64,000 bases of DNA. Source: Alphaproteobacteria bacterium (GTDB lineage Bacteria > Pseudomonadota > Alphaproteobacteria > JANQMY01). Both the position numbers and the translations under genes were made by a program. The DNA is taken from contig CBDDFL010000001.1 of assembly GCA_965227095.1 (NCBI GenBank), positions 85,539-149,538 on the forward strand, in the 5' to 3' direction. Position 1 is the first letter of the stretch; each line of letters starts with the position of its first letter. Shown piece after piece: positions 2,461 through 42,644 of the stretch. Below the pieces are notes generated by a model. The model did not search any database and was not told where the DNA came from. It was given only the letters and a program-made list of their open reading frames with translations.

Positions 2461-3306
2461 ATGAGATTCCACTGCCATCGCGCCTATGCTTTTCGCGCGC
2501 TGCCGGGCGATGTAAACAACCGCGGCAAGCAGACGTGGCTCCTTATCGAAGGCGCGCAATAGAGCAACCCTTGCATAGTCGTCGATGCCGGAGCTTGAGA
2601 TGGCCGCTTTGACCAGTGGACGGGATTGGGCTGCATCAATTGCAGCAAGGCCAAACAGCCTTACTTCCAGCCTGTGGCCCTGAAGAGCGTATAACGGATC
2701 TCCGCGGAAGGCCTTTAATGATATGGCAAAGGTGACCGCGCGCATTGCGCGCCGAAATTGCTTGGAGCTGCGTAATCGCGCGGCGTATTCAAGCCGCGCG
2801 GCGCCGTTGCGCGCACGATTTATCAGCTTTTCGGGCATCTGTTCGCCACTGGCCTTGCCGAGCGTCGGCACAAGTCTCGTCCCACAAACCTGGCAGTCGA
2901 ATGCCCAGGCTCGCCTCCAATGCTTGAGCGAAAGGCCCTCTCTGGAACATTGCAGGCAATGCTGGAATGGTATCTGGGCCGTCAGCGAGGCTTCTCGTGT
3001 CGTCATTGCTGGGAAGGTCAAAGATCGCACAACATCTGGGTCAATCCGTGCGGCGTTGGCAATCTTCGCCGCCGCAGCCGCGTCGACGTTGAAGTTCAAG
3101 GCGGTGCCATGCGCGGTATCGATTCTGAGATGAGCCAGTAGTTCCGCATCATCACAGTAGTTGGCCGCCGCCAGCCTAGACAACCAACCTGACAACAACT
3201 CGTCGGGCAGCGGCGCGACAGTCTTGGGCAGCGGGTGCGGCTTCACACCCCGGACTTCTCGAGCCGCCGATGGGGGTTCGCATGGCGCGACCAAACCGGC
3301 GTCCAT
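2455..3306 (-). CDS. tniQ: TniQ-family transposition protein
   Basis: N-terminus ...LPDELLSGWLSRLAAANYCD... plus Cys pairs (CLQC...CQVCG) are typical of the TniQ/TnsD domain; lies downstream of tniB, overlapping its end. Confidence 0.7.
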   Translation of the reverse strand: MDAGLVAPCEPPSAAREVRGVKPHPLPKTVAPLPDELLSGWLSRLAAANYCDDAELLAHLRIDTAHGTALNFNVDAAAAAKIANAARIDPDVVRSLTFPAMTTREASLTAQIPFQHCLQCSREGLSLKHWRRAWAFDCQVCGTRLVPTLGKASGEQMPEKLINRARNGAARLEYAARLRSSKQFRRAMRAVTFAISLKAFRGDPLYALQGHRLEVRLFGLAAIDAAQSRPLVKAAISSSGIDDYARVALLRAFDKEPRLLAAVVYIARQRAKSIGAMAVESHN

Positions 3307-4241
3307 TTTGCGATTGCGTCATCGGTGATGCATTCATCACCTGTGACAATGGCGTCGATGGAAAGATCCTTGATCAGGGCGAAGATGCGCGAGGTCACCC
3401 CGCCGGTCAGCGCAAGTATCTGCTTTAGTGACTTGACCTTCAGATTGGATTTCTTCTCGAGGGGCATTGCCGCGATGAGTGTCTGGATCATGTCCGAGAA
3501 CTCGGCGTCGTCGCGCCAGTTTGGAAGGTGATGTTCGTCCAGCCGCCTGGCAAGCTGGATATCACCACGGATGGCATCGACGGCCTCGCTGACCCCCAGG
3601 CAGACCAGCGACACTTCGAGTTCATTGCTGAGATACCGCAGAACATTGAGAAAGCGGCGCTGTTCGCGGTGGGTCCCGGCCAAGAGGTTGTGGACTTCGT
3701 CGATCATGATCATCCGCAGGCCAAGGTCGCGCAAGAGCGCGACGACACGGACTTCGAGGGAGGCCACATTTTGAGCGCGCGCGCTCAGTGCCGTGGCCGG
3801 TGCCCCGACGGTCGCCAGGATGTGCAGATAGAACCGTCGTTCGTCGGGAGCTGGTGGTGCTTGTAACAGTAACAGCGGCGTTCGCGTAATTCCCGATGCT
3901 GGGTCATATTCCGGTGCATATCTGCGCGAAAGATTGCGGGCGATCATCGTCTTTCCGATCCCGGACGCGCCATGCACAAGAAGGCCAGGCATACGGGTTT
4001 GCCTTGGCGCTTCGATCATACACTGCAAACGGTCCAGAACTTGTTCGGCCCGCGGAAAGCCAATCCAGATATCCGATTGAATGAGGGTGATCCGACCGTC
4101 TTCCTCTGTTTTTCCTGCCCTCAATTCACCATCTCTCCACCTTGAACAATGGGCGCGATGTATCACCCGTATCGATCGCGCGCAGCCCTTCGGTTGTTGA
4201 GACGGCCGAGTTGGCGCCCTCCAATGTCCCTTTTCTTTCAC
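3243..4241 (-). CDS. tniB: TniB AAA+ ATPase (transposition helper, TnsC-like)
   Basis: Walker A GASGIGKT and Walker B MIMIDEVHNLL; size and position after tniA. The annotated start overlaps tniA by 116 nt, so the true start may be an internal or non-ATG codon. Confidence 0.8.
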   Translation of the reverse strand: MKEKGHWRAPTRPSQQPKGCARSIRVIHRAHCSRWRDGELRAGKTEEDGRITLIQSDIWIGFPRAEQVLDRLQCMIEAPRQTRMPGLLVHGASGIGKTMIARNLSRRYAPEYDPASGITRTPLLLLQAPPAPDERRFYLHILATVGAPATALSARAQNVASLEVRVVALLRDLGLRMIMIDEVHNLLAGTHREQRRFLNVLRYLSNELEVSLVCLGVSEAVDAIRGDIQLARRLDEHHLPNWRDDAEFSDMIQTLIAAMPLEKKSNLKVKSLKQILALTGGVTSRIFALIKDLSIDAIVTGDECITDDAIAKWTPVWSRHANPHRRLEKSGV

Positions 4242-5775
4242 GGGATCGGCGTTCGGCCCTCGTCAGGCTCCGGCTTTCAGACTCGATTTGGCGTTGCTGT
4301 CGGATCAGCTCAGCCAGGACCAGCTCATTGGACCCGGACTTGCCAAGGGCACGGGCATTCCTCATGGCTTCGCGATATTCCCAGAGCGACACAGGCGGAA
4401 TTTCCAGGTTTCGGTACCGAGCTTCGACGTATCGGTCATTATCCAGTTCGACCCAGATCACCGAGAGGTCGCGAGGGTCGTAGCGGACGACCACCTTTCC
4501 ATCCCCGCGCCCGATGTGGCCTGCAAGCGCATCGGACCAGTACCGTATCTGGAACAGATGGATGCCGTCACGCCTGACCTTGCGCAGTTCACTTGGCAGA
4601 AAGCTCACCCGAAAGGCTTCAATCTCGAAGGGGATATCGCCCATCATTTGCTCTGAGAGCGCCTCCCATTTGGCAACGGGCGTGCAGCCAAGACTTGAAT
4701 GAATGCTGTTGTTGTAGCGGCAGATTTCCAGAGCAAACCAGCGATCGAAGTCGCTTAAGGTCATCGTGGCCATGCCCTCGGCGTCATAGTCGCCCTTGGC
4801 CACGACCGAGGATTGCGTTGTTCCAGGCAACAGGTGCACGGCCCCCATCATCGTGCCGATCAATCGTTCGATGTGCCCTCCGAAATGAGGACTGCCTGGC
4901 GGCCGATAGACCAGATCGATCCCCCATTCCGCACATGCCGACCGAAAGGCATGCGACCGGAAATCGCGCCCGTTATCGACGTGGATGCTATGCGGTTTAC
5001 CCTGCGCGGGCCAAGGAACATTGCGCACCAATTCCGCCAGAAGTTCCGCCTTGGGGGCCACAGCCTGTGTCAGGCAAAGCGCCACCGACAGACGCGAAGG
5101 TGCCTCGAGAGAGGTGTAATATCCGGTCACCATCCGCGTTGCGACGTCGATCGCCAGCGTGACCCAAGGCCGCCCAATTGGTTTGCGTTCAAAACTGTCG
5201 ACGAGAATGATGTCCGCAGGCGTATGGTCGATTTGCACGACCTCCAGTGGCCGGTTTGCCTTGTTGTCGCCTACGACCGGCGCAAATTTCTGGCGGGCCG
5301 CCTTTGCGCCTTCGCGTGCCTTGGCAATTTCACGGGCATCCATTGCATCCAGCCTGCGCTGAACCGTCCGACGTGTCGGCGGTTGCAAGCCCTGCTGCCA
5401 GCACGCGCTTCGGATTTCTGTCACGATGCGCGACAGGCTTGGGCGTTCCCGCCGTAAGAAATAACGGCGAAGATGTTCTTCGATCACCGCTTCCACCTTG
5501 CCGGATATCAAGGTTGTACCAGTCGGGCGGCCCCGTTTCCGAGAAGCCAGCGCGCTGGTGCGCCCACCCTCTTCGGCCAGACGCTTTATCCAGCGCCAGA
5601 CAGTCGCCCTGCTGACACCAAGCTCCCAAACGGCGTCATTGATGCCACTTTCCAGACTGCCAGTTCCTTTGAGATATGCCTGAACAAGCGGACGCAGAAC
5701 GGCCGCCCTGCGCGCCTCCTCAGCACCAGCGGCAACGAAGTCTTCGCGATCATCATCCATCAATATTTGCCACAC
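4126..5775 (-). CDS. tniA: TniA DDE transposase (Mu/TnsB-like, rve integrase core)
   Basis: N-terminal HTH region, then integrase core ...VVQIDHTPADIILVD...WVTLAIDVATRMVTGYY...HVDNGRDFRS... (D, D, E spacing typical of the TnsB/TniA/MuA family). Confidence 0.85.
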   Translation of the reverse strand: MWQILMDDDREDFVAAGAEEARRAAVLRPLVQAYLKGTGSLESGINDAVWELGVSRATVWRWIKRLAEEGGRTSALASRKRGRPTGTTLISGKVEAVIEEHLRRYFLRRERPSLSRIVTEIRSACWQQGLQPPTRRTVQRRLDAMDAREIAKAREGAKAARQKFAPVVGDNKANRPLEVVQIDHTPADIILVDSFERKPIGRPWVTLAIDVATRMVTGYYTSLEAPSRLSVALCLTQAVAPKAELLAELVRNVPWPAQGKPHSIHVDNGRDFRSHAFRSACAEWGIDLVYRPPGSPHFGGHIERLIGTMMGAVHLLPGTTQSSVVAKGDYDAEGMATMTLSDFDRWFALEICRYNNSIHSSLGCTPVAKWEALSEQMMGDIPFEIEAFRVSFLPSELRKVRRDGIHLFQIRYWSDALAGHIGRGDGKVVVRYDPRDLSVIWVELDNDRYVEARYRNLEIPPVSLWEYREAMRNARALGKSGSNELVLAELIRQQRQIESESRSLTRAERRSRERKGTLEGANSAVSTTEGLRAIDTGDTSRPLFKVERW

Positions 5776-21917: not shown

Positions 21918-23192
21918 ATGAGTCAGGCCGCCCTGAAACCGTCCACAACAGACACTTTCGACCCAAACGCGATCGCGCTGGAGGACATCGATCTGACGGA
22001 CGCGAATTACTATTTCAACCAACAGCATTGGGCCCTGTTCGAACGCCTGCGCAATGAAGATCCGGTGCATTTCTATGACCATGAAGAATTTGGCCGCATC
22101 TGGTCGGTGACCCGCTATGCGGACATCATGGCGGTGGACACCAACCACAAAACGTTCTCCTCCGAACCGTCCATCTTTATCGTCGATGGGCCCACGGGCG
22201 ACGATGAAAACTTCGACCCGGAAACCTTCATCGCCATGGACCCGCCAAAACACGACATTCAGCGCAAAGCGGTGACCCCGGCCGTTTCGCCCTCTGCGTT
22301 GATGGATTTGGAACCCCTGATCCGCGAGCGTGTGTGCAAGGTGCTCGACGGCTTGCCGGTGGGCGAAACCTTCAACTGGGTGGACCGGGTGTCGATCGAA
22401 ATCACCACCCAAATGTTGGCCACCCTGTTCGATTTCCCCTTCGAAGACCGCTACAAGCTGACCTTCTGGTCAGACCTCACAACCGCCAACGAAGAAGTGT
22501 TGGAAGAAATGGGGCTCACGGAAGAAGAACGCCGCGGACACCTGTATGAATGCTTGGAAACTTTCGGCAAGCTTTACGCCGAACGCGCGGCTCTTCCGCC
22601 TGCGAATGATTTCATCTCGCTGATGGCTCATAACGAGCATATGAAAAGCCTGGACCCCATGAACTTGCTCGGCAATCTGATGCTGCTGATCGTGGGCGGC
22701 AACGACACCACGCGGAATTCCATGTCCGGCGGCGTGCTGGCCCTGCATAACCATCCGGACCAATTCGCGAAGCTGAAGGCCGACCCGTCGGTCATCCCGA
22801 ACATGGTGTCGGAAATCATTCGTTGGCAGACGCCGCTGGCCTATATGCGCCGCACTGCCACGGAAGATGTGGAACTGGGCGGCAAGACCATCAAAAAAGG
22901 CGACCGGGTATTGATGTGGTACATCTCCGGCAACCGCGACGAGCGGGACATTGACCGCCCCAATGAATTCCTGATCGACCGGGAAGGCGCCCGCCGCCAC
23001 CTATCCTTTGGCTTCGGCATTCACCGCTGCATGGGCAACCGTGTGGGCGAAATGCAGGTGCGCATTCTGTGGGAAGAAATTCTCAACCGCTTCGACCGGG
23101 TGGAAGTGGTGGGCACGCCCGTGCGCACTTTCTCGAACTTCGTGATGGGCTTCACCGACCTACCTGTCGTCGTGCACCCGAAGACGAGCTAG
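21918..23192 (+). CDS. Cytochrome P450, CYP153 family (alkane/alkyl omega-hydroxylase-like)
   Basis: CYP153 signatures LLIVGGNDTTRNSMSGG, EIIRWQTPLAYMRRTA, heme loop FGFGIHRCMGNRVGE. Confidence 0.9.
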   Translation: MSQAALKPSTTDTFDPNAIALEDIDLTDANYYFNQQHWALFERLRNEDPVHFYDHEEFGRIWSVTRYADIMAVDTNHKTFSSEPSIFIVDGPTGDDENFDPETFIAMDPPKHDIQRKAVTPAVSPSALMDLEPLIRERVCKVLDGLPVGETFNWVDRVSIEITTQMLATLFDFPFEDRYKLTFWSDLTTANEEVLEEMGLTEEERRGHLYECLETFGKLYAERAALPPANDFISLMAHNEHMKSLDPMNLLGNLMLLIVGGNDTTRNSMSGGVLALHNHPDQFAKLKADPSVIPNMVSEIIRWQTPLAYMRRTATEDVELGGKTIKKGDRVLMWYISGNRDERDIDRPNEFLIDREGARRHLSFGFGIHRCMGNRVGEMQVRILWEEILNRFDRVEVVGTPVRTFSNFVMGFTDLPVVVHPKTS

Positions 23193-23204
23193 GCGATCAG
23201 CCTT

Positions 23205-23232
23205 GACGGACGGGGTTTGCAACCCCGTTTAC
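23205..23232. repeat. REP-like palindrome (degenerate copy) immediately after CYP153 stop
   Basis: gacggacggggtttgcaaccccgtttac (compare consensus TTGACGGACGGGGTTACAAACCCCGTCCGTCAA). Confidence 0.5.
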
Positions 23233-23238
23233 CTCTGT

Positions 23239-23637
23239 TTATTTCTCACCAGGTTCACCTTGCGCGGTGGAGAGGAGTCTGACCAACAGTCCAAGCAAGG
23301 TCAAAGAGATTAGACCGTAGAGGCCGACGATTGACCAGCCATTTTCATTCGCCCCGGCATACTGTCCCTGGATCGCCATGACCGTGCTCAAAGACGTTGC
23401 GATCAGAAGGGATGACACAAACCCCATACGCAGGTTTCTATCCTCAGTTCGACGGGCGAACCATGCGCACATGCCCATGCCGATGAGTGTCGAGCCCCAG
23501 AACCGATAGATGACGATCCCCATGGCGCTCAATTGAACATCGTAATTTGCCAACATATCTTCGGGGAACAGAACACATAGAGCGCCAGAGACAATGGTTA
23601 CTACGGCCAAAATTGAAAGTACCAATTTATACGTCAC
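23239..23637 (-). CDS. hypothetical small membrane protein (4 predicted TM)
   Basis: 132-aa hydrophobic ORF; no family recognised. Confidence 0.5.
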   Translation of the reverse strand: MTYKLVLSILAVVTIVSGALCVLFPEDMLANYDVQLSAMGIVIYRFWGSTLIGMGMCAWFARRTEDRNLRMGFVSSLLIATSLSTVMAIQGQYAGANENGWSIVGLYGLISLTLLGLLVRLLSTAQGEPGEK

Positions 23638-23676
23638 GGCCTTTTCCTTTTTTTTAGGGTCTAATGATGTCGAGTG

Positions 23677-24984
23677 TTAGGCTGACAAGCTCAGCCCCAC
23701 TTGCTTTTTGACCTGGGCCAAAGCAGCGCGATAGGTGTCGATATGCACATAATTTGCATGTCGTTGAGAGTCGACATAACGGTGGCCAGCCGTGAGGTCG
23801 GGCTTATGCGTCTTTTTCATTTTTGAAAGCTTTTCTTTCAAGGGCGATTCGGCATTGGCCGCGGCATCTGCCGCGATTAACTCAGCCATCTGATCAAAAT
23901 TTGCGTATGCCGCCGAGGAGAATTCCACAAACCCAAGAAACGCCAAATTGCTGTGCTTTCTGGAAAACATTCCCAAATAAAGATCGGGCCGCCCCTTCTT
24001 TTTGTCTACGTCGGCTGGGTCCAGGAACGGGATGTCGTGTTTGTATCCGGTCGCCGCTATGATGAGATCCACCTGCTCTCTAGACCCGTCAACAAATTCA
24101 ACACAATGGCCATCCAATCTCGCAATGTCCGGTTTAACGACACAATCGCCGTGCCCCACATAGTGCAGAATCTGGGTGTTCATCAACGGATGAGATTGAA
24201 ACAGTTTGTGGTCCGGCTTCGGAAATCCGTATCTCGCAACATTGCCATTCATCAAGTTCAGGATCAACGTGATTGCCGGCGTGGAAATCCAGTCCGGAAG
24301 CTTGGCCCCTTTCCTCGCAAACACATCCGTCGGCTGTCCCATGATGTATTTCGGCACAAAATGATAACCCCTTCGTACGCTGATGAATGTCTGCTTCGCT
24401 GCAAATGCCGCATCACACGCAATGTCTGCGCCGGAATTCCCAGCGCCAACGATCAGCACACGTTTTCCAGCAAACTCCGACGGCGATCGATATGTGATTG
24501 AATGTCGAATTTCTCCGTCAAAATTTCCGGGCCATGAAACTAAGTTAGGTTCCCAAGTCACTCCATTGGCGCAGATCAAATAACGGGCGGTAAGGGTTTC
24601 ACCCTCTTTCGTTTCTAACTTCCATTTCCCCTGACGGTCACGCTTGGCATGGGTAATATGGGTGTTCAGTCTTACGTGTTTGCGTAAATCAAACGTGTCG
24701 GCGAACGACCGGATATAGTCGAGAACAAGTGTGTGATTTGGGTAGTCGGGGTAACCATCGGGCATTGGAAATCCGGGAATTCCCGACAATGACCGAGACG
24801 AAATAAAGTGGGCGGAGTCGTACATCGGCGATCCAGGTGCATCAATGTCCCAAACACCTCCTACGTCAGACCCACGATCAATTAACTGAAACCTTGTGTC
24901 ATATGACTGGAGGTGTTTTGCCAGAATCAATCCGGCAGGGCCCGCACCAACAACCAAAACATCCCATTCTTTCGTCTCATTCAT
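23677..24984 (-). CDS. Flavin-containing monooxygenase (FMO-like, two dinucleotide-binding motifs)
   Basis: VLVVGAGPAGL (FAD) and LIVGAGNSGADIA (NADPH) GxGxxG motifs, FMO-like FxGxxxHS region. Confidence 0.85.
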   Translation of the reverse strand: MNETKEWDVLVVGAGPAGLILAKHLQSYDTRFQLIDRGSDVGGVWDIDAPGSPMYDSAHFISSRSLSGIPGFPMPDGYPDYPNHTLVLDYIRSFADTFDLRKHVRLNTHITHAKRDRQGKWKLETKEGETLTARYLICANGVTWEPNLVSWPGNFDGEIRHSITYRSPSEFAGKRVLIVGAGNSGADIACDAAFAAKQTFISVRRGYHFVPKYIMGQPTDVFARKGAKLPDWISTPAITLILNLMNGNVARYGFPKPDHKLFQSHPLMNTQILHYVGHGDCVVKPDIARLDGHCVEFVDGSREQVDLIIAATGYKHDIPFLDPADVDKKKGRPDLYLGMFSRKHSNLAFLGFVEFSSAAYANFDQMAELIAADAAANAESPLKEKLSKMKKTHKPDLTAGHRYVDSQRHANYVHIDTYRAALAQVKKQVGLSLSA

Positions 24985-25004
24985 TCAAATACCCCCCCTC
25001 TTTC

Positions 25005-25048
25005 GTGACTAGTAGTCACGTTACAAAATACGACTATTAGTCACGTTT
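25005..25048. promoter_or_regulatory. Candidate operator in FMO promoter: palindrome GTGACTAGTAGTCAC plus direct repeat of CTAnTAGTCACGTT
   Basis: gtgactagtagtcac at 25005-25019; ctagtagtcacgtt (25008-25021) and ctattagtcacgtt (25034-25047), 20-60 bp upstream of the FMO start. Confidence 0.45.
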
Positions 25049-25230
25049 TGAGTTTTGTCAAGCGGAACTCCGCATCGGAAACACGCAGACGACAGAAAAG
25101 TTTCGCTGCTCTTTCACCGGATGAGGGAGCCGACCGTTCTCCAAAAGGAAAGTTGGGGTGTTCAAATTAAAGCACGCGGTCGAAACAATGTGCCGCGAGA
25201 ATGTCGGTTGCGCCGTGCTAAGCAGCATTA

Positions 25231-25309
25231 CTCAGCACTCAGCACTCAGCACTCAGCACTCAGCACTCAGCACTCAGCACTCAGCACTCAGCACTCAGCA
25301 CTCAGCACT
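25231..25309. repeat. Heptanucleotide microsatellite (CTCAGCA)x11.3, perfect
   Basis: Direct reading of ctcagca repeated 11 times plus ct, ending at the tetR stop codon (25309-25311); lies in the 324-bp FMO upstream region. Confidence 0.95.
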
Positions 25310-25932
25310 TAAGATACCGATCGATTTTCCAAAATATGCAAGCAGGTTAATCCACAGAAGGCATCAATCGTTCTTTTTGCCTCCGCTGGAGACAGGACTG
25401 CTACGAGACGAATTGCGGCATCTGCCAATTCCAGCATCAACAAGACGCGCTCCGCAATCGATTTGCGGGACCCGTGAACACCTCGGCTCGCCAAAAACCC
25501 AGCGACGATTTTTGCGTTCTTTCGACTGTCTTCCAAATCCAGACGCGAGAGCTCCGGATCTTCACGAATAACGGCTCTCAACTGCACACGAAACGGTTCT
25601 CTTTGATGCCGTTCAAGATATTCCCGAAAGCCAATGCGCAATATTTCCTCCGGCGATATATCCGGCCCAATCGTTGCGTGGATCAGATCAGCCCCATCCT
25701 TATAGACCCGTTTGATAAGCGCATGGACGATTGCCGGTTTTCCCGGGAAATACCGATAGACTGCCGCTTTCGATATCCCGGCCCGTTTCGCGATTTCGGT
25801 AATCGTGATCTTGTCGATACTATTGGACGACAACAACTCCTCCAGCGCCCCCAGAATCGATTCAACACCGGTCTTGCTTCGGGTTTGCTCGGGTTCACGT
25901 CTGAGCTCTAAGTCTGTGTTAGACATTCTCAT
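25309..25932 (-). CDS. TetR-family transcriptional regulator
   Basis: HTH ITITEIAKRAGISKAAVYRYFPGKPAIV; 207 aa. Confidence 0.85.
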   Translation of the reverse strand: MRMSNTDLELRREPEQTRSKTGVESILGALEELLSSNSIDKITITEIAKRAGISKAAVYRYFPGKPAIVHALIKRVYKDGADLIHATIGPDISPEEILRIGFREYLERHQREPFRVQLRAVIREDPELSRLDLEDSRKNAKIVAGFLASRGVHGSRKSIAERVLLMLELADAAIRLVAVLSPAEAKRTIDAFCGLTCLHILENRSVS

Positions 25933-26091
25933 TCAATTCCTTATGTCGGTCGCGCCGGAGAAGCTGACATCGTGTTTTGTAATCCTACCCTCGAGAAGCT
26001 CGACATGCACCGTCGCTGATGGAACCGAATAGGAAATGCCACACGAACAGAGCAACAAGGCCATAACGACGCTGGCAATGAGTCTTGGCAT
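25933..26091 (-). CDS. possible small lipoprotein (52 aa), not in supplied ORF track
   Basis: Manual translation MPRLIASVVMALLLCSCGISYSVPSATVHVELLEGRITKHDVSFSGATDIRN; signal-peptide-like with Cys; stop abuts the tetR start codon. Confidence 0.25.
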   Translation of the reverse strand: MPRLIASVVMALLLCSCGISYSVPSATVHVELLEGRITKHDVSFSGATDIRN

Positions 26092-26133
26092 TTTCTAACC
26101 CCCAATTCGGAAAATGGGTCTAGTTTCTCTATT

Positions 26134-26170
26134 GATGGGCGGGGTTACAAACCCCGTCGGTCGCCCGCCT
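26134..26170. repeat. REP element copy 2
   Basis: gatgggcggggttacaaaccccgtcggtcgcccgcc; palindromic core GGGGTTACAAACCCC. Confidence 0.7.
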
Positions 26171-26179
26171 TAAAGCGTC

Positions 26180-26956
26180 TTAGCGCGGCGACCGCCCATA
26201 GACGAGGCCGAGGCCTTGTGTCTTGTATCCTAACAATACCAACAATTCGTCCGACGCGGTTTCGATCACTTCCTTGTCGAGTGACAGAAACCAGTTTTCC
26301 TGCGTTCGGTAAATCGGCCTCGTGTACCAGCCGAACAACGCCGCGCGCGGATGTTGGGAACGGTTGCTGCCGGTGCGGTGGCGCACGCGGCTTTCGAACA
26401 CCATCAGCGTTCCCGCCGGTGCGATCACGGGAATCGCTTTTGCGGGAAGCTCGGTTTCGTCCGCATCGCCGGGCAACACATGGCTGTGTGGCACCACTTC
26501 GGTTGCCCCATTATCCGCCGTGAAATCGTCCAGCAGCACACCCACATTCATGCCTTGCGGGGCCGCCGGCCATGGCGTGGGCACGAAAAGCTGATCGGCA
26601 TGTAACATGCCGCCGTCACTGCCTGGTTCGGCGATATTGGCGGAGATATTACCGAGGAGCGCCGGCCAGCCGATCACCTCGCGTAACAGGTCGAGCACGA
26701 TCGGCAATTGGACGATGTCGCGAAACACCGCATCGCGATTGAGAATGTTCCAAACACGGACATTTTTATCGCCATAATCCAGGCCGAACATATCGGCTTT
26801 TCGGCCCAGACGCCGGTCCTCGTCCACCGCCGCATAGGTCGCGGCGCGCGCCGTTTCCAGTTGCGCGGCCGACAGCTGTCCACAGATCAACGCCAATCCG
26901 TGCTCGCGAATATGGTCCTTGGCATCGGCAGCGTTATCAACGACGGGAGGGAGCAT
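26180..26956 (-). CDS. Phytanoyl-CoA dioxygenase (PhyH) family Fe(II)/2OG oxygenase
   Basis: HADQ...H...R pattern (GGMLHADQLF, TEVVPHSHV, RHRTGSNRS), 258 aa. Confidence 0.8.
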   Translation of the reverse strand: MLPPVVDNAADAKDHIREHGLALICGQLSAAQLETARAATYAAVDEDRRLGRKADMFGLDYGDKNVRVWNILNRDAVFRDIVQLPIVLDLLREVIGWPALLGNISANIAEPGSDGGMLHADQLFVPTPWPAAPQGMNVGVLLDDFTADNGATEVVPHSHVLPGDADETELPAKAIPVIAPAGTLMVFESRVRHRTGSNRSQHPRAALFGWYTRPIYRTQENWFLSLDKEVIETASDELLVLLGYKTQGLGLVYGRSPR

Positions 26957-27030
26957 GGTTACGTCCAGATTTGTGCAGCGGTTGTGACGATCTCATAGTA
27001 TGACACAACCAATTGACATACACCTCCCTA

Positions 27031-27064
27031 TTGACGGTCGGGGTTACAAACCCCGTCCATCAAC
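27031..27064. repeat. REP element copy 3
   Basis: ttgacggtcggggttacaaaccccgtccatcaa. Confidence 0.8.
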
Positions 27065-27077
27065 TGGGAACCAATCC

Positions 27078-27620
27078 TTAGCTTCTACCGTCGGGATCAC
27101 TTTCGCCGCCATCCTTCCAATTCTGTTGAAGGTCTGTCCACAGTTTGGACTGCTGATCAGGCGAGTCGAGACGGGATTGAAGATAAGTTCGCGGGCTGGG
27201 GGGAACGATATGGGTGTTTTCTGTTTGGGTCCACCATTCCGGAATTGACCGAATGGTAACAAGAAGAGATTGCATGATCACTTCAAACGATTCCTCATCC
27301 AACAGGCCCTTTTCGTACAATTGCAACGCGTCATGCGCATTTCCCAAATAGCGCCACATGAACATGTCGAACGACGAGCTGTCCTGCTGGTCCATTGTTG
27401 CGTATCCATTTACCGCCGCCAGCATGATGCGACGCAATTCGGCGTTTTTCGCAACATCCCAAGAGTTGCCGTGAAAATTGCCCATAACGGACCGTGCGCT
27501 TTCGATGCGATAGTTGCGATTTGACTGGCGGATCTGAATCGCGAGGTAAATGAGCGATAAGATGACGCCCACTGCCGCCAAAAAATCTGAAATCGCGCTA
27601 ATGGCTGACCAGTTCATCAT
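27078..27620 (-). CDS. hypothetical membrane-anchored protein (paralog of 27843-28364)
   Basis: N-terminal TM ...VGVILSLIYLAIQIRQSNRNYRIESARSV resembles ...AAILGSLIFVGVQIRQNTLATRRQSLDGV of the neighbour. Confidence 0.55.
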   Translation of the reverse strand: MMNWSAISAISDFLAAVGVILSLIYLAIQIRQSNRNYRIESARSVMGNFHGNSWDVAKNAELRRIMLAAVNGYATMDQQDSSSFDMFMWRYLGNAHDALQLYEKGLLDEESFEVIMQSLLVTIRSIPEWWTQTENTHIVPPSPRTYLQSRLDSPDQQSKLWTDLQQNWKDGGESDPDGRS

Positions 27621-27683
27621 CTTTCCTCTCGTTCACATCAGGGATTTTTAGTTGATTTTCCAAAGGATGTCTTCTCTACATTC

Positions 27684-27729
27684 TCTCGACGGACGGGGGG
27701 ACGGGGTTACAAACTCCGTCCGTCAACGG
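27684..27729. repeat. REP element copy 4
   Basis: ctctcgacggacggggggacggggttacaaactccgtccgtcaacgg. Confidence 0.8.
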
Positions 27730-27842
27730 AAACTGTGATGCAACCAATGTCACTTCTCTCATCGGCCTGACAATGACATTCTTTGATCAGACAGATAATG
27801 TCGCTCGTCTGCAAAACACCTCTTTTATGCGGGGAGAAGGTC

Positions 27843-28364
27843 ATGTCGCTCGAGACCATTTACTATATCGGCCAAACGATTGCCGTTGCGGCGATTCTAG
27901 GTTCGCTCATATTTGTTGGCGTTCAAATTCGCCAGAATACGCTTGCGACCAGAAGACAATCTCTAGACGGCGTGATTGACCGAATTGTTCGGTGGCAGTC
28001 AAGGCTAACCAGCACGCCGACTCATGTGGATAGCTGGGTCAAAGGGCTGCAGAACTTTGACAGTCTTCCCGTTGAAGAAAAAATCCATTTCAATGCCCTC
28101 ATCATAGAAATTCTGGTAACTCTCGAGGCGGGACGAGAGGCCGGTAAGACGGGCGATATTAAGCCTGAAACCATTGAGGCGATGGACGGCATGATCGTCC
28201 AACTCTTCCGAAACGCCGGCGTAAGGGAATATTGGCGCCAAGCAAATTACGCGGCGGATTTTATGGCCTACGTCGATAAAATTACAGAGAAGGTGACAGC
28301 GATCCCCAATAGTGACCCCGGGTCCTTGCCGTTTTATGTACCGCCGGAAGAGGCAACTCAATGA
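27843..28364 (+). CDS. hypothetical membrane-anchored protein (paralog of 27078-27620)
   Basis: GGAGAAGG SD before the ATG at 27843; the same N-terminal TM-IQIRQ architecture as the divergent neighbour. Confidence 0.55.
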   Translation: MSLETIYYIGQTIAVAAILGSLIFVGVQIRQNTLATRRQSLDGVIDRIVRWQSRLTSTPTHVDSWVKGLQNFDSLPVEEKIHFNALIIEILVTLEAGREAGKTGDIKPETIEAMDGMIVQLFRNAGVREYWRQANYAADFMAYVDKITEKVTAIPNSDPGSLPFYVPPEEATQ

Positions 28365-28519
28365 AATGCGATGCAGTCTGGTCTGCTCCCTTCGACATTG
28401 CCTTTGGACTGTGATGACCGGATCAAGTATTGCAGCGTTTGGTTTTTTTGAAAGAGATCTAAGGTTATCCGGCCGTTTATGAACATCATAACAACGTCCA
28501 CGTCATAAAAATTCTTCAC

Positions 28520-28557
28520 TCTCGACAGACGGGTTTTGTAACCCCGTCCGCAGGTTC
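28520..28557. repeat. REP element copy 5 (inverted relative to copy 6; flanks RAYT start)
   Basis: ctctcgacagacgggttttgtaaccccgtccgcaggttc. Confidence 0.8.
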
Positions 28558-28559
28558 AT

Positions 28560-29111
28560 ATGATCCGCCTATTAGATCGGAGAACGTGGCCTATGCCAAT
28601 CGTGCGTATCAAACCGTTTGCAAAAGATGGTGTCTATTTCGTGACGCCGACGGTTTGGAATTGGTACTACCTGTTCGATCGGCACAATCGGTGGCAGATC
28701 ATCGCGGACAGTCTGCGGTATTGCCAAGATCACAAATCTCTCAAGATCTACGCTTACGTCTTCATGCTGAACCATCTGCATTTGATCATTCAGGCGGACG
28801 ATGCCGAAAACGTTTTGCGGGATTTTAAGCGGCACACCTCAAAAGCGCTCAAAGAGAATATTCGCGCAACGGAACCAAATGTCCTGACATTATTCGAAAC
28901 CACTGATAGCACCTGGCGTCTTTGGAAAGCAGATAACCAACCACAGCTGATTGAAACGGAAAAGTTCTTTCGCCAGAAGCTCGATTACATTCACGCCAAC
29001 CCCGTACGCAAAGACGACGGGTCACAAGCCGAACACTGGAAATGGTCATCCGCTAATCCGGATAGCCCTCTAAAAATTGAACCGTTATCCTTATTGACGG
29101 GACAGCAATGA
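28560..29111 (+). CDS. REP-associated tyrosine transposase (RAYT, IS200/IS605-like Y1 HUH)
   Basis: HUH motif MLNHLHLIIQ and catalytic Tyr region LDYIHANPVRK; 183 aa; flanked by inverted REPs. Confidence 0.85.
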   Translation: MIRLLDRRTWPMPIVRIKPFAKDGVYFVTPTVWNWYYLFDRHNRWQIIADSLRYCQDHKSLKIYAYVFMLNHLHLIIQADDAENVLRDFKRHTSKALKENIRATEPNVLTLFETTDSTWRLWKADNQPQLIETEKFFRQKLDYIHANPVRKDDGSQAEHWKWSSANPDSPLKIEPLSLLTGQQ

Positions 29112-29149
29112 ACCTGCGGACGGGGTTACAAACCCCGTCCGTCAATGGC
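29111..29149. repeat. REP element copy 6 (flanks RAYT stop)
   Basis: gaacctgcggacggggttacaaaccccgtccgtcaatggc; the outer arm gaacctgcgg is the inverse of ccgcaggttc at copy 5. Confidence 0.8.
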
Positions 29150-29187
29150 ATAGGCAGCGTTGTCAACGAGAGGCGGCAGCACGTTTA
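29150..29187 (-). pseudogene. 12-codon remnant of a second PhyH-like gene start fused to REP copy 6
   Basis: The rc reads GTG-LPPLVDNAAYA..., compared with the intact PhyH N-terminus MLPPVVDNAADA; about 80% nt identity over about 100 bp to 26921-27030, including upstream sequence. Confidence 0.45.
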
Positions 29188-29418
29188 CGTCCGTATTTGT
29201 TTGGGCGGCTGAAGACGCTTCTCAGTATGGCATAGACATGATGCGTGCTTATCCCGCTCTCTACGCGGGAATAGGCAACATTAGCGAACGAATCACTAAC
29301 CTGGCAGCCTAATTAAGTATAGCAGGTGCCAATTTGGTGGGAAACCAAATGGATCGCACTTGCCCTCCATCGGTGCTTTGTTATTCTGGGACAATCTTAA
29401 CGATAATGGAGGAAGCTC

Positions 29419-29847
29419 GTGTCTACACCGACAGACGGTAGTTTTGACGCCCTAAATCTAGACGCTGTCTTAAACACAGCTGTTGATCAAGCCTCTGGAA
29501 TAATCAGCAGTGTCAAAAATCCTTCGTGGGATAAACTATCGCCGGTAAAGCAGTTCCCCGGCAAAATTTCGAAAAATGTCATCCCAATAGATTTTGAAGA
29601 ATATCGGATGCAGATTGTCACAAAAGTTGAACCCGGCACTCTTGTCGACACACATAAGCATGTGGAATCCGTATTCCGATATGTCCTGGATGGCGACCTT
29701 ACAATAAATGGTCTGGCACACGGACCAGGTGATTGGGTACTTGTCCCTGGAAACACCCCATATCGAGTAACAACAAACGGCGGATACACAGTTCTAGCTT
29801 CTTACGGAGCCAAATGCGGATCCCCACATGACCGCGTCGTTAAGTAA
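29419..29847 (+). CDS. cupin-domain protein
   Basis: ThkHvesvFryVLdGdLti...GpGdwvlvPgn pattern of small cupins; located in a low-GC islet. Confidence 0.55.
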   Translation: MSTPTDGSFDALNLDAVLNTAVDQASGIISSVKNPSWDKLSPVKQFPGKISKNVIPIDFEEYRMQIVTKVEPGTLVDTHKHVESVFRYVLDGDLTINGLAHGPGDWVLVPGNTPYRVTTNGGYTVLASYGAKCGSPHDRVVK

Positions 29848-29926
29848 GACATTGAAACATCAGCACAGAACCTTTGCGGACGAGATATCAAACTGTCGAT
29901 AGATAATCTATGTGGGGTTTCGCTGA

Positions 29927-30616
29927 ATGCCTCTCACCATGACTATATTTCCAAAATTAAATGAGAAGGTACTAATACGGTGGATCGAGACATATTGCGA
30001 GCTCCATGATGTTTCCCATTGTCGTCCAAAAGTTTTCGCCGAATCCGATTGGGAAACCGATATTGATATTTTTGCAGATCAGAACAGTTGGGTGCGCGTG
30101 GAATGGCCTCCGTTATTCGGTATAAACACGGTCCCAGCTTCAGAGTATTTTTCACGAGCGCTTGATTCTGTCGTCGTTTCCTCGGAATTTCTTGATGACC
30201 ACGGATGGACCTATGTGATTCTGGATCGAGGCGTGATCAAGGACAAGTTTGTAAATTCACGTTTCAGATATAACCTTACCGAGGAGGAGGCAAAAGATTA
30301 CGTCGGGAATGCAGAGATTTTGGCTAAACACTTCAACATCCCTACACAGAATATCATTCCGTATTTGCGGCACATTGAAAGCTATGGAATATGGGATGAG
30401 CTAAAAGTCTTGTTGGGCTTAAAAATGAGACCCAAACCAATTGGCAAAGTTTTTTTGGATGACCGCTATCAATTGGATGACGAGCGTGTTTTTTTTGATT
30501 TTTGGCGCCGACTTGGTTTTAATCTTTCTTACGATGGTGCACCTGCAGGAACTGCTCGAATCAAGATAAAAAAAGGCTTTCACGACAAGTTCCCCAAAAA
30601 TCAAATAAGTTTCTAG
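29927..30616 (+). CDS. hypothetical protein (low-GC islet)
   Basis: 229-aa ORF, about 40% GC versus about 60% surroundings; no family recognised. Confidence 0.5.
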   Translation: MPLTMTIFPKLNEKVLIRWIETYCELHDVSHCRPKVFAESDWETDIDIFADQNSWVRVEWPPLFGINTVPASEYFSRALDSVVVSSEFLDDHGWTYVILDRGVIKDKFVNSRFRYNLTEEEAKDYVGNAEILAKHFNIPTQNIIPYLRHIESYGIWDELKVLLGLKMRPKPIGKVFLDDRYQLDDERVFFDFWRRLGFNLSYDGAPAGTARIKIKKGFHDKFPKNQISF

Positions 30617-30647
30617 CGACCTCCACGTTATCACAGCAAACTGGCCC

Positions 30648-31310
30648 CTACTCCACCCGCTCGAAATCCTTGAACAGCAGCACATAGTCTTCCGAGATGG
30701 CGCGGCGCAGGGTTGAGCCTTCGCGGCAGATGACGGCACGGGTAAGCAGTGGCGGCAGGTCCGCGAACACGCGTTCGAAATGGTGTTCGAACACGAACTT
30801 GTCGAAACGCATGAATAGGGTCGGTTCGATTTTTTCATCCGTACGGATACTATATCGGGTAAGGCCGCCTAGTGGACCTAAACCAAGTTCCGCCTGCACG
30901 TTTTCAGCCACCTTGGACTGCCGCGGCGCCTGAAACCGATAGACCGTTTCGACAGGTGACATGGAGATCAATTCCGCTCCCGCGATGGACTTGCGGTAGT
31001 CCGCCGCCACCAAGCCGCCTGGCATGGCCTCCAACCGTTTGGCGTGGGCCAGTTTACCGCGCGCCGTCGCGTCGAGTGCATTCGGGTCGCCCTTGAGCAC
31101 CGTCCACCGCCCGCTTGAGGCGTTGTAGCGTTCGACGATTTCGGGGCCGTCCGCCCATTGAAACACCAAGGTGAACGATAGGCGCAGATCCGCATGGGCT
31201 TCGGCCTCTCGCAGCGCTTGCTCCACCGGATCGGGCAAGGTGCTGGCCCCTGCGGGCACCGCACCCAATAACGCCCCTATGAGGGCGAGAATTTTGACCA
31301 ATGACCCCAT
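30648..31310 (-). CDS. hypothetical secreted protein
   Basis: Signal peptide MGSLVKILALIGALLGAVPAGAST; 220 aa. Confidence 0.55.
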   Translation of the reverse strand: MGSLVKILALIGALLGAVPAGASTLPDPVEQALREAEAHADLRLSFTLVFQWADGPEIVERYNASSGRWTVLKGDPNALDATARGKLAHAKRLEAMPGGLVAADYRKSIAGAELISMSPVETVYRFQAPRQSKVAENVQAELGLGPLGGLTRYSIRTDEKIEPTLFMRFDKFVFEHHFERVFADLPPLLTRAVICREGSTLRRAISEDYVLLFKDFERVE

Positions 31311-41318: not shown

Positions 41319-42644
41319 CTAGGCTTTGCGGTGGCAGACCACGGGCAGCCACGCATATCCGTGTACGAATGAATTCGGCACCAAATTCGGCTCGTCCAAC
41401 ACCTCGATATGCTCAAACCGCTTGAGCAATTCTTCCCACAACACACGCAATTGAAGCTCCGCAAGGCGGTTGCCCACGCATCTATGAATGCCAAATCCAA
41501 ATGAGACGTGGTTACGCGCTTGTTTGCGGTCAATGATTAGGCGGTTTGGATCTTCTTCCCAGAACGTTTCATCGCGATTGGCGGATATGTACCACATGGC
41601 GATTTGATCGCCTTTCTTGATGGTTTTGCCATGCATCTCTACGTCTTCCAGCGCGGTCCGCCGCATATAGGACAGCGGTGTCTGCCAGCGGATAATTTCC
41701 GCAACCATATTGGGGATGAGCGCGGGGTTTGCTTTTAACTTGGCATATTCATCCGGGAATTTGTTGAGCGCATAGACACCGCCCGACATGCTGTTGCGGG
41801 TCGTATCGTTCCCCCCAACAATCAGCAGCAACACGTTCCCCAGCAACCAATTCATATCGAGATTGCGTGTGGACGCACCATGGGCCAACAGGCTCATCAA
41901 GTCATGACCAGCAGGGGCCGACTTACGTTCTTCATAGATACCGGAGAACGTTGTGAGGCAGTCAGACAATTCCTGCTGCCATTGGTCCCGGCCCCCAGGA
42001 CACACGTCTTTATCGAATGGATTGGTGGTCACATCTGACCAGCGGGTGAGTTGGCGCCGTCTTTCCTGAGGAAACCCGAACAAGGTCGCCAGCATCATGG
42101 CCGTCAATTCGATAGAGACAGTATCGACCCAATCGAAGGGCTCCCCCACCGGCAACCGATCCAATACTTTTTGCGTCCGACCACGGATAAGGGGTTCATA
42201 TTCCTGCAGCATGTTCGGGGCAACGCCGGGCTGAACAGTTTTGCGCTGAACCGAATGAATGGGTTCATCCGCCGTTATAAAACTGTTGGCGTCAAAGCCC
42301 TTGGCTGGCGGGCCCAACACGATGCCGCCATATTTAGCGTCTGATGAAAAACGCGTGTGATCCGTATCTATCGCCAGCACGTCCTTATAGCGGGTGACCG
42401 ACCAATAGGGACCAGAAATGCTATCAGGCGTCCAATGCAACGGATCTTCTTTGCGCAGACGGTCGAACCGATCCCACATTTTGTTCTGCCGCCAGACTTC
42501 CACGTCAATGAGATCGAGCGTTTCCAGATCCAATTCGCTCGCCGGAGGGACGCGATCCCCTTGATCTAAATATTGAGGCCGAGCGGGCTTGCGGTAACTG
42601 AGAGTTGGACGTTCCAACGTCAGGCTGCGGGCGGCTTCCCCCAT
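41319..42644 (-). CDS. Cytochrome P450, CYP153 family (second copy)
   Basis: LLIVGGNDTTRNSMSGG, EIIRWQTPLSYMRRTA, FGFGIHRCVGNRLAE; paralogous to 21918-23192. Confidence 0.9.
   Translation of the reverse strand: MGEAARSLTLERPTLSYRKPARPQYLDQGDRVPPASELDLETLDLIDVEVWRQNKMWDRFDRLRKEDPLHWTPDSISGPYWSVTRYKDVLAIDTDHTRFSSDAKYGGIVLGPPAKGFDANSFITADEPIHSVQRKTVQPGVAPNMLQEYEPLIRGRTQKVLDRLPVGEPFDWVDTVSIELTAMMLATLFGFPQERRRQLTRWSDVTTNPFDKDVCPGGRDQWQQELSDCLTTFSGIYEERKSAPAGHDLMSLLAHGASTRNLDMNWLLGNVLLLIVGGNDTTRNSMSGGVYALNKFPDEYAKLKANPALIPNMVAEIIRWQTPLSYMRRTALEDVEMHGKTIKKGDQIAMWYISANRDETFWEEDPNRLIIDRKQARNHVSFGFGIHRCVGNRLAELQLRVLWEELLKRFEHIEVLDEPNLVPNSFVHGYAWLPVVCHRKA

Follow-up and report, generated by a model that had tools for sequence, protein, structure and literature searches.

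A probable REPtron with a non-GTAG REP type in a strain-variable island of an uncultured alphaproteobacterium

In the 64,000-nucleotide stretch of alphaproteobacterial DNA analysed here (GenBank assembly GCA_965227095.1, contig CBDDFL010000001.1, positions 85,539 to 149,538; "the window" below means this whole stretch), six short palindromic repeats are gathered around a gene for a RAYT, a domesticated, REP-associated tyrosine transposase, where REP stands for repetitive extragenic palindrome. REP-RAYT systems are well known in Gammaproteobacteria, and both the movement of REPs and the benefit of a RAYT to its host are unsettled; RAYTs are typically present in one copy per genome, and they cleave and rejoin single-stranded REP DNA. 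The question raised by this locus is whether its repeats are a family proliferating on the spot and kept as transcription signals for nearby oxygenase genes, as a preliminary description had put forward, or belong to a unit of another kind. We consider it likely that the locus is a REPtron, that is, the RAYT with its cognate inverted REP5 and REP6, together with four more REPs in a strain-variable island, with relics and with junctions at REP ends. Systems of this kind are known; the lineage is new, and the REP type lacks GTAG. The host is, on sequence grounds, an uncultured Rhodospirillales-like alphaproteobacterium, and the best named relatives of its glnS are Rhodospirillaceae/Rhodospirillales metagenome-assembled genomes (MAGs; 70-74% identity).

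The REP copies and their RAYT

Searching the window with GGGGTTACAAACCCC (up to 2 mismatches) returned six matches, at 23212, 26141, 27040, 27703, 28531 and 29122, against a chance expectation of 0.18, and six matches were reached in none of 100 shuffles. The identical six sites, and no others in the 64 kb, were recovered by a 21-mer search (3 mismatches) and by an nhmmer profile of the six copies, whose next best hit had E = 0.16. All six fall inside 5.9 kb, for which the approximate chance is 4e-5. The copies lie where the preliminary description had placed them; two of its statements about them went too far. The 33-bp palindrome that it gave for all six is a consensus with no exact copy, REP3 having 2 mismatches to it and the others 4-9, and a REP is found in 6 of the 8 intergenic gaps between 23192 and 29419 rather than in every gap, those at 23638-23676 and 24985-25308 being empty. 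The common hairpin core that it described holds for about 19 nt, ACGGGGTT-ACA-AACCCCGT, and is accompanied by one or both of the arms TTGACGGAC and GTCCGTCAA, depending on the copy. Five of the six copies are located 10-160 nt downstream of a gene 3' end, the spacing between copies ranges from 591 to 2929 bp, and loop orientation puts copies 1 and 5 on the minus strand. As short imperfect palindromes that are extragenic and repeated, these six intergenic hairpins have the basic properties of REPs. Neither GTAG nor GTGG was found next to any window copy in either orientation, so the canonical GT[AG]G foot is absent. A CRISPR array was ruled out by the irregular spacing and by the genes between the repeats.

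The open reading frame (ORF) enclosed by REP5 and REP6 is a genuine RAYT under purifying selection. Its product passed the NCBIfam model for REP-associated tyrosine transposases (NF047646; 85.5 bits, cut-off 80) and was sub-threshold for Pfam Y1_Tnp (19.5 vs 23). In an alignment of 34 homologues, H61 and H63 of the HUH motif (H61-L-H63), W111 and Y132 were invariant, and N136 was at least 90% conserved; Y132 aligns (phmmer) with Y115 of E. coli TnpAREP (4ER8), the catalytic tyrosine of that protein (PMC3479197). An AlphaFold (AF2) model of the RAYT (pLDDT 86) had 4ER8 as its best fold match (E 5.7e-8, TM 0.67-0.69, 170 aligned columns). The ratio of nonsynonymous to synonymous divergence (dN/dS) was 0.18 against the 93%-identical orthologue of a related strain (locus L122). 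The start codon is probably the ATG at 28593, because GGAG precedes it and a 100%-identical 172-aa protein is on record. One RAYT copy was observed in the window. The earlier view that these are REP-type hairpins with a cognate RAYT alongside is thus upheld by the family model, the catalytic residues, the fold and the recurrence of the same core beside RAYT homologues.

The RAYT gene is bracketed by 36-nt inverted arms (28524-28559 and 29108-29143) that are 94% complementary. Oriented by the loop, REP5 and REP6 each read as a head, ATGAAC(C/A)TGC, a stem, GGACGGGGTT, the loop ACA, the second half of the stem, AACCCCGTCC, and a tail, GTCAA, with both heads pointing toward the RAYT gene. REP2, REP3 and REP4 are headless and carry the tail on both sides (TTGAC...GTCAA). 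The best preserved copy is REP6, with an 11-bp stem and a single-stranded DNA fold of -14.8 kcal/mol; the corresponding value is -13.3 kcal/mol for REP3 and -5.7 kcal/mol (z = -0.9) for REP5, a degraded copy in which a G>T change weakens the stem. REP1 has a good TTGACGGAC arm on the left, a degenerate arm on the right and merely a degenerate head-like AAAC, and REP4 has an 8-nt internal duplication in its left arm and a C>T change in the core.

The same arrangement of a minus-strand REP, a RAYT and a plus-strand REP with inward heads was found at RAYT homologues of 93% (L122), 75% (L121), 62% (L108, a Rickettsiales MAG) and 54% identity (L082, Methylobacter marinus), each with unrelated genes around it. 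A 65% homologue (L123/L124) has a clear upstream REP and a weak downstream match. At the 75% homologue locus the upstream REP and the first 38 RAYT codons are tandemly duplicated (L121, 9733-10000). RAYT genes of this clade (window, L122, L121, L123, L082) have a GC content of 0.46-0.49 in hosts of 0.54-0.59, the exception being the Rickettsiales locus L108, where gene and host are both about 0.37; the low RAYT GC is compatible with horizontal movement or with compositional constraint.

A scan of one genome per species found an identical 17-nt core, CGGGGTTACAAACCCCG, at at least 120 loci across phyla, with flanks that are lineage-specific. Hosts among the matches listed include Poribacteria, Methylococcales, Thiotrichaceae/Thioploca, Rickettsiales-like Alphaproteobacteria MAGs, Desulfobacterales (Desulfonema) and candidate-phyla MAGs (Paceibacterota, Peribacteria, Nomurabacteria). 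The core is dispersed in these genomes, because only 3 of 120 loci among the matches listed contain a RAYT. In Poribacteria it also forms tandem arrays with a 57-bp period (L031). Across 139 unique copies from other genomes, four pairs outside the fixed core were Watson-Crick in 86, 80, 72 and 58% of cases, with several pair types, and pairing beyond them fell to about 18%, which gives a stem of 10-11 bp. These copies share a 5' A-rich AAACGT box and a 3' GC tail as conserved flanks, the conserved 5' box reading TGAAC(A/C/G)T or AAACGTT. Adjacent copies in other genomes were arranged head-to-head in 37 cases, tail-to-tail in 5 and in tandem in 21, with a modal head-to-head spacing of 61 bp. 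Inverted pairing is therefore the rule elsewhere, including doublets of the REPIN type (inverted REPs with a short spacer); the window copies are singlets, except that its sole head-to-head pair encloses the RAYT gene, and a REPIN in this sense was not found there. No match to the core was returned by a full-text literature search. We take the repeat to be a real REP type as judged from its sequence, and not a local duplication, because the core flanks RAYT homologues elsewhere and is dispersed, mostly as inverted doublets, in other genomes. Were the family confined to this locus, it would still be a REPtron and not a plain duplication, as its link to a RAYT is conserved across taxa.

Gene blocks in related strains

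The REP cluster lies in a low-GC island (23193-30647; GC 0.50 vs 0.57 outside) that contains genes for a P450, a flavin monooxygenase (FMO), a TetR regulator, a PhyH dioxygenase and two small paralogous membrane proteins. The GC content is 0.48 for the RAYT, 0.46 for the cupin ORF and 0.42 for ORF229, with PhyH (0.60) as the exception. Between the P450 gene and the gene at 30648-31310, three related strains have three gene contents. The window has, in order, P450, REP1, ORF132-FMO-TetR, REP2, PhyH, REP3, ORF180, REP4, ORF193, REP5, RAYT, REP6, PhyH remnant-cupin-ORF229 and the right-hand gene. L122 (about 96.5% identical) is like the window through PhyH and continues with REP5, RAYT, REP6, an unrelated 550 bp and the same gene. 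In L130-L133, where the left flank is 99.98% identical to the window and the P450 protein is identical, the P450 gene is followed by an unrelated 820 bp with ORF197, then REP2, PhyH, one REP, ORF244, one REP and the gene, and no RAYT was observed in this interval. Two sister-species loci (L134, L135; P450 87-88% identical) are without REPs and a RAYT, and to the right of the P450 gene they show no synteny.

Several of the borders between shared and unshared sequence coincide with REP ends. With L130, homology begins at 26132, where REP2 itself starts. The block REP5-RAYT-REP6 (28524-29144) is 94.8% conserved in L122 with both flanks different, and no two of the three strains agree in what lies to the right of the REP tail, which is the third variable block (Table 1) in the window, the unrelated 550 bp in L122 and ORF244 with a REP in L130. 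REP1, REP2, REP5 and REP6 are orthologous in L122, the counterpart of REP1 being at about 3251-3283. A new REP inserted into an otherwise unchanged gap was seen in none of the strains.

At the exact place of the L122 REP5-RAYT-REP6 block, and with its 22-nt left flank unchanged, L130 carries only one REP, which lies upstream of PhyH; this REP, ATTGACGGACGGGGTTACAAACCCCtTCCGTCAA, consists of the left arm of REP5 joined to the loop and right arm of REP6. This is the form that collapse of REP-RAYT-REP onto one palindromic core would leave. L130 also has a REP5-like remnant with 9 nt of RAYT leader beside its P450 stop codon. A reading of the L122 REP as a chimera of REP3 on the left and REP5 on the right was set aside as the alignment is ambiguous, and we claim no direction of events from it.

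Divergence from L122 rises from 1.3-1.4% to 8.1% across REP2. Synonymous divergence (dS) from L122 has a step at the same place, with 0.03-0.05 for FMO, TetR and ORF132, 0.165 for the RAYT and 0.25 for PhyH; this unevenness, noted for 26166-26966 and 28593-29111, suggests import by recombination. The loop of REP2 (26147-26149) is inverted relative to L122 (6153-6167), TTACAAA against TTTGTAA (ACA vs TGT), with the stem kept, and looks like a hairpin-loop flip.

Table 1. Positions in the window of the REPs, the RAYT gene, neighbouring genes and strain-variable blocks
Feature	Position	Strand	Remarks
P450 gene	stop 23192		left neighbour of REP1
REP1	23203-23235	-	between convergent 3' ends of P450 gene and ORF132
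ORF132	stop 23239		3' end converges with P450 gene 3' end
TetR-family regulator	25309-25932		mid-cluster
REP2	26132-26164	+	3' of PhyH; symmetric double-tail, no head motif
PhyH	stop 26180	-	
REP3	27031-27063	+	between PhyH start and ORF180 stop; best palindrome; segment absent from L122 and L130
ORF180	27078-27620	-	unknown function; window strain only
REP4	27686-27726	+	between divergent ORF180 and ORF193 starts; same strain-specific segment as REP3
ORF193	27843-28364	+	unknown function; window strain only
REP5	28522-28559	-	RAYT-flanking, upstream; head motif (complement of ATGAACCTGC) toward RAYT gene
RAYT/TnpAREP gene	28593-29111	+	172 aa from probable start ATG 28593; mechanical ORF from 28560
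REP6	29108-29145	+	RAYT-flanking, downstream; head ATGAACCTGC overlaps RAYT stop codon; tail GTCCGTCAA
Remnant of PhyH paralogue	29146-29232	-	first 12 codons and upstream region; abuts REP6 tail
Variable block A	23187-26131		REP1, ORF132, FMO, TetR, small ORF; window and L122; unrelated 820 bp instead in L130-L133
Variable block B	26967-28523		REP3, ORF180, REP4, ORF193; window only; 22 nt here in L122 and L130
Variable block C	29145-30647		PhyH remnant, cupin ORF, ORF229; GC 0.42-0.46; window only

The PhyH remnant is about 80% identical to 26920-27005 (local alignment score 62; shuffle maximum 25). The divergent ORF180 and ORF193 have a common N-terminal hydrophobic segment followed by (I/V)QIRQ (BLASTP E 6e-5), and neither matched a Pfam or NCBIfam family. 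A perfect 7-bp tandem repeat, (ACTCAGC) x 11.4, separates the TetR stop codon from the FMO promoter region (25230-25309); the matching repeat in the approximately 97%-identical L122 (5281-5323) is (AGCACTT) x 6.1, different in both unit and copy number. Part of the P450 gene beside REP1 (22665-22942) has an inverted 278-nt match of 72% identity at 41569-41846, inside a second P450-like gene (41319-42644), so that the match is between paralogues and not repeats. An ORF at 4126-5775 on the minus strand has weak similarity to IS481/IS630-family transposases and no relation to the REP cluster. A permuted transfer-messenger RNA called by ARAGORN at 1800-2301 overlaps the ORF at 563-1945 and is probably a false positive, with none found there in Rfam; an Rfam scan of the whole window returned no family at gathering thresholds.

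Explanations for the locus

In the reading that we favour, a single RAYT, an HUH/Y1 single-strand DNA nuclease-transferase of the TnpAREP clade, sits between the head-to-head cognate pair REP5 and REP6, and the four other REPs of the family occupy intergenic gaps nearby in the low-GC, strain-variable island. A complete REP is asymmetric, with a 5' head box (TGAAC; AAACGT in Gammaproteobacteria), an 11-bp G+C-rich stem, a 3-nt loop and a 3' tail (GTCAA here, GC elsewhere). By analogy with E. coli TnpAREP and the IS200/IS605 transposases, the RAYT would bind the hairpin that folds in single-stranded DNA, with the head box as the guide or cleavage determinant. REP2, REP3 and REP4 would be solo relics left after a head-to-head REP pair, with or without a RAYT between, collapsed by recombination between the palindromic cores, and probably they neither move nor act as substrates any more. 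The REPs, and their outer ends especially, would mark junctions at which gene blocks are gained, lost or swapped between strains, mediated perhaps by the palindromic cores or by cleavage at REP ends. Any influence on transcripts, for example through 3' hairpins on five of the genes, would be a side effect. Such an incidental effect is possible, given that five copies closely follow gene 3' ends and that strong RNA folds are formed by some.

Several observations count against this reading of the locus as a REPtron. A guide or cleavage role for the head box is argued by analogy; the box does not read GTAG and is not located at the hairpin foot. Two junctions lie away from REP ends, at 23186 (17 nt before REP1) and at 26966 (65 nt before REP3), and for the single REP of L130 the three strains cannot tell collapse from insertion into a solo REP. 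The window RAYT has D142 and G143 (29016-29021), where at least 90% of the 34 homologues, L122 included, have Y and V; three nonsynonymous changes fall inside five codons around these positions, and the window RAYT may be functionally impaired. Outside the island there are no copies in 56.5 kb of the window and none in 8.3 kb beyond its right end (from a 97%-identical strain), and a metagenome contig scan found the lineage-specific arm in one JGI (Joint Genome Institute) contig only, which is unrelated. Because there is no REP in these approximately 65 kb and a single metagenome contig with the arm, the REP family in this lineage may be very small, even though by a Poisson estimate zero copies there are still compatible with up to about 150 in 3.2 Mb.

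The coincidence of REP ends with block borders can also be read more strongly. The REP ends might be site-specific joints at which blocks are exchanged, either by the RAYT or by host recombination that the hairpins guide, so that the locus would be an integron-like, REP-punctuated cassette array with the RAYT itself as one cassette; we give this only a small chance. If true, the content of an array extending from the P450 gene to the gene at 30648-31310 would turn over between strains that are otherwise 97-100% identical. Integron attC sites as such were rejected for the palindromes: the island ORFs scanned had no integrase-family match (the search covered these, and the rest of the window was not exhaustively searched), cassette orientations are mixed, and no R''/R' (RYYYAAC/GTTRRRY) sites were found by eye.

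That the REPs are proliferating actively and locally and have been retained as terminators or mRNA stabilisers of the oxygenase genes, as first proposed, now seems unlikely to us. The position of five copies downstream of gene 3' ends fits this proposal, as does the report that enterobacterial REPs stabilise mRNA and terminate transcription (PMC6006769). In RNA folding, REP3, REP4 and REP6 formed stable hairpins of -24 to -30 kcal/mol (REP3 -30), a further point in its favour; REP5 barely folds. A T-run follows the hairpin in one of the six copies only, REP1 on the plus strand, which has a terminator-like score, and a G+C-rich hairpin with a U-run, as in intrinsic (Rho-independent) terminators, was seen at no other REP. 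Across the region 10.5 terminator-like sites would be expected and 8 were counted, REP4 is placed between two divergent gene starts, and L130 keeps this PhyH gene beside other neighbours. Local proliferation in particular found no support, as the copies are old and degenerate, four of them being orthologous in the approximately 3.5% diverged L122, and as strains differ in copy number because whole segments were gained or lost and not because new REPs entered otherwise unchanged gaps.

It is improbable, in our view, that REP5-RAYT-REP6 is an autonomous insertion sequence of the IS200/IS605 type with terminal hairpins and that the other copies are derivatives resembling miniature inverted-repeat transposable elements (MITEs). 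This would account for a 621-bp block that is conserved as a whole between flanks that vary from strain to strain, for its presence or absence among near-identical strains, for the low GC of the RAYT relative to its hosts, and for the REP5-like remnant with RAYT leader beside the L130 P450 stop codon. However, the protein failed the IS200 model NF033573 (13.9 bits vs a cut-off of 55) while passing the RAYT model, and its fold is nearer TnpAREP than the IS200/IS605 transposases ISDra2 and IS608 TnpA (TM approximately 0.45). There is also a single copy in 64 kb, in the same relative position (PhyH to gene 30648-31310) in the window and in L122, and its ends are inverted copies of one hairpin, whereas the left and right ends of IS200/IS605 elements are distinct.

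That the palindromes are operators of a small oxygenase regulon under the island's TetR-family regulator, as their intergenic position and the TetR gene amid them might suggest, is highly improbable and was rejected, since the same core occurs at the 120 or more loci across phyla and flanks RAYT homologues without a called TetR-family neighbour (gene tables of L121 and L123/L124), most copies are at gene 3' ends, L130 retains three REPs in an island without a TetR gene, and a perfect palindrome upstream of FMO, GTGACTAGTAGTCAC (25005-25019), is a more plausible TetR operator. This palindrome and a related second copy (25030-25045) are found 21-60 nt upstream of the FMO start, where they overlap a sigma-70-like promoter match on the minus strand; the site is likely the operator of the adjacent TetR regulator, unrelated to the REPs.

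Comparison with known REP-RAYT systems

The locus adds to what is described a RAYT-linked REP type without a GTAG guide, which offers a second recognition code to set against the E. coli structure, with RAYT homologues beside the 17-nt core in other Pseudomonadota (Rickettsiales, Methylobacter, Crenothrix). It also supplies three strains as a natural series, with REP ends falling at the junctions of swapped gene blocks, and the solo double-tail REP at the exact REP-RAYT-REP position gives direct comparative support for an origin of symmetric REPs by collapse of inverted pairs. Current views are not overturned, as low-copy RAYT groups (PMC5581495), non-GTAG and double-foot REPs (PMC6006769) and loss of the E. 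coli REPtron have already been described.

The E. coli REPtron (tnpAREP/yafM with REP/BIME, bacterial interspersed mosaic elements; Ton-Hoang 2012, Messing 2012, PDB 4ER8) is alike in having a single HUH/Y1 RAYT between inverted cognate REPs with more REPs nearby, conserved catalytic residues and the closest fold, and its locus is present or absent between strains, with loss reported in some (PMC6006769). It differs in protein sequence, with only about 20% identity, and in its repeats: the window REPs are singlets and not BIMEs, and where the E. coli REP has a 5' GTAG at the hairpin foot, a TGAAC/AAACGT box lies 4-5 nt upstream instead. The positions that contact GTAG in E. coli are Q95, E100, H101 and R104 (PMC6006769); by our own reading of a weak phmmer alignment the residues opposite them are K, P, Q and E, which fits a different recognition sequence. 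Atypical structures without GTAG are already on record (PMC6006769).

Pseudomonas REPIN-RAYT systems (Bertels and Rainey 2011) resemble the present one in the head-to-head doublets that this core forms elsewhere, modally at 61 bp, and in a RAYT placed inside such a doublet; RAYT groups with only about 12-14 copies of a flanking 16-mer per replicon are known (PMC5581495). The window, in contrast, is without a short-spaced doublet, and its copies all lie within 6 kb of the RAYT, with none in approximately 65 kb elsewhere. Near-identical strains differ here in whether they have the RAYT, whereas stable vertical inheritance is described for REPIN-RAYT systems.

CGTC-tagged REPs (Di Nocera et al. 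2013) likewise have an alphaproteobacterial host, no GTAG and a predominance of head-to-head dimers, and CGTC does occur here inside the CCGTCAA tail. Members of that family have stems of 8-9 bp whose first two positions are A/T, loops of 4-5 nt and no associated transposase (PMC3733652), and the repeats of the window, with a G+C-rich stem of 11-15 bp, a 3-nt loop and a linked RAYT, fall outside the family; the CGTC inside the tail is not diagnostic.

The closest parallel to the symmetric form of REP2-REP4 and of the single REP of L130 is with the double-foot REPs (Quentin et al. 2018) of TnpAY1 subclass 2.4, which carry the terminal motif and its complement at both ends and for which an origin by central deletion of an inverted dimer has been proposed (PMC6006769). 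The duplicated end here is the tail (TTGAC...GTCAA) and not the GTAG head, and the strain comparison gives a direct example at a RAYT site.

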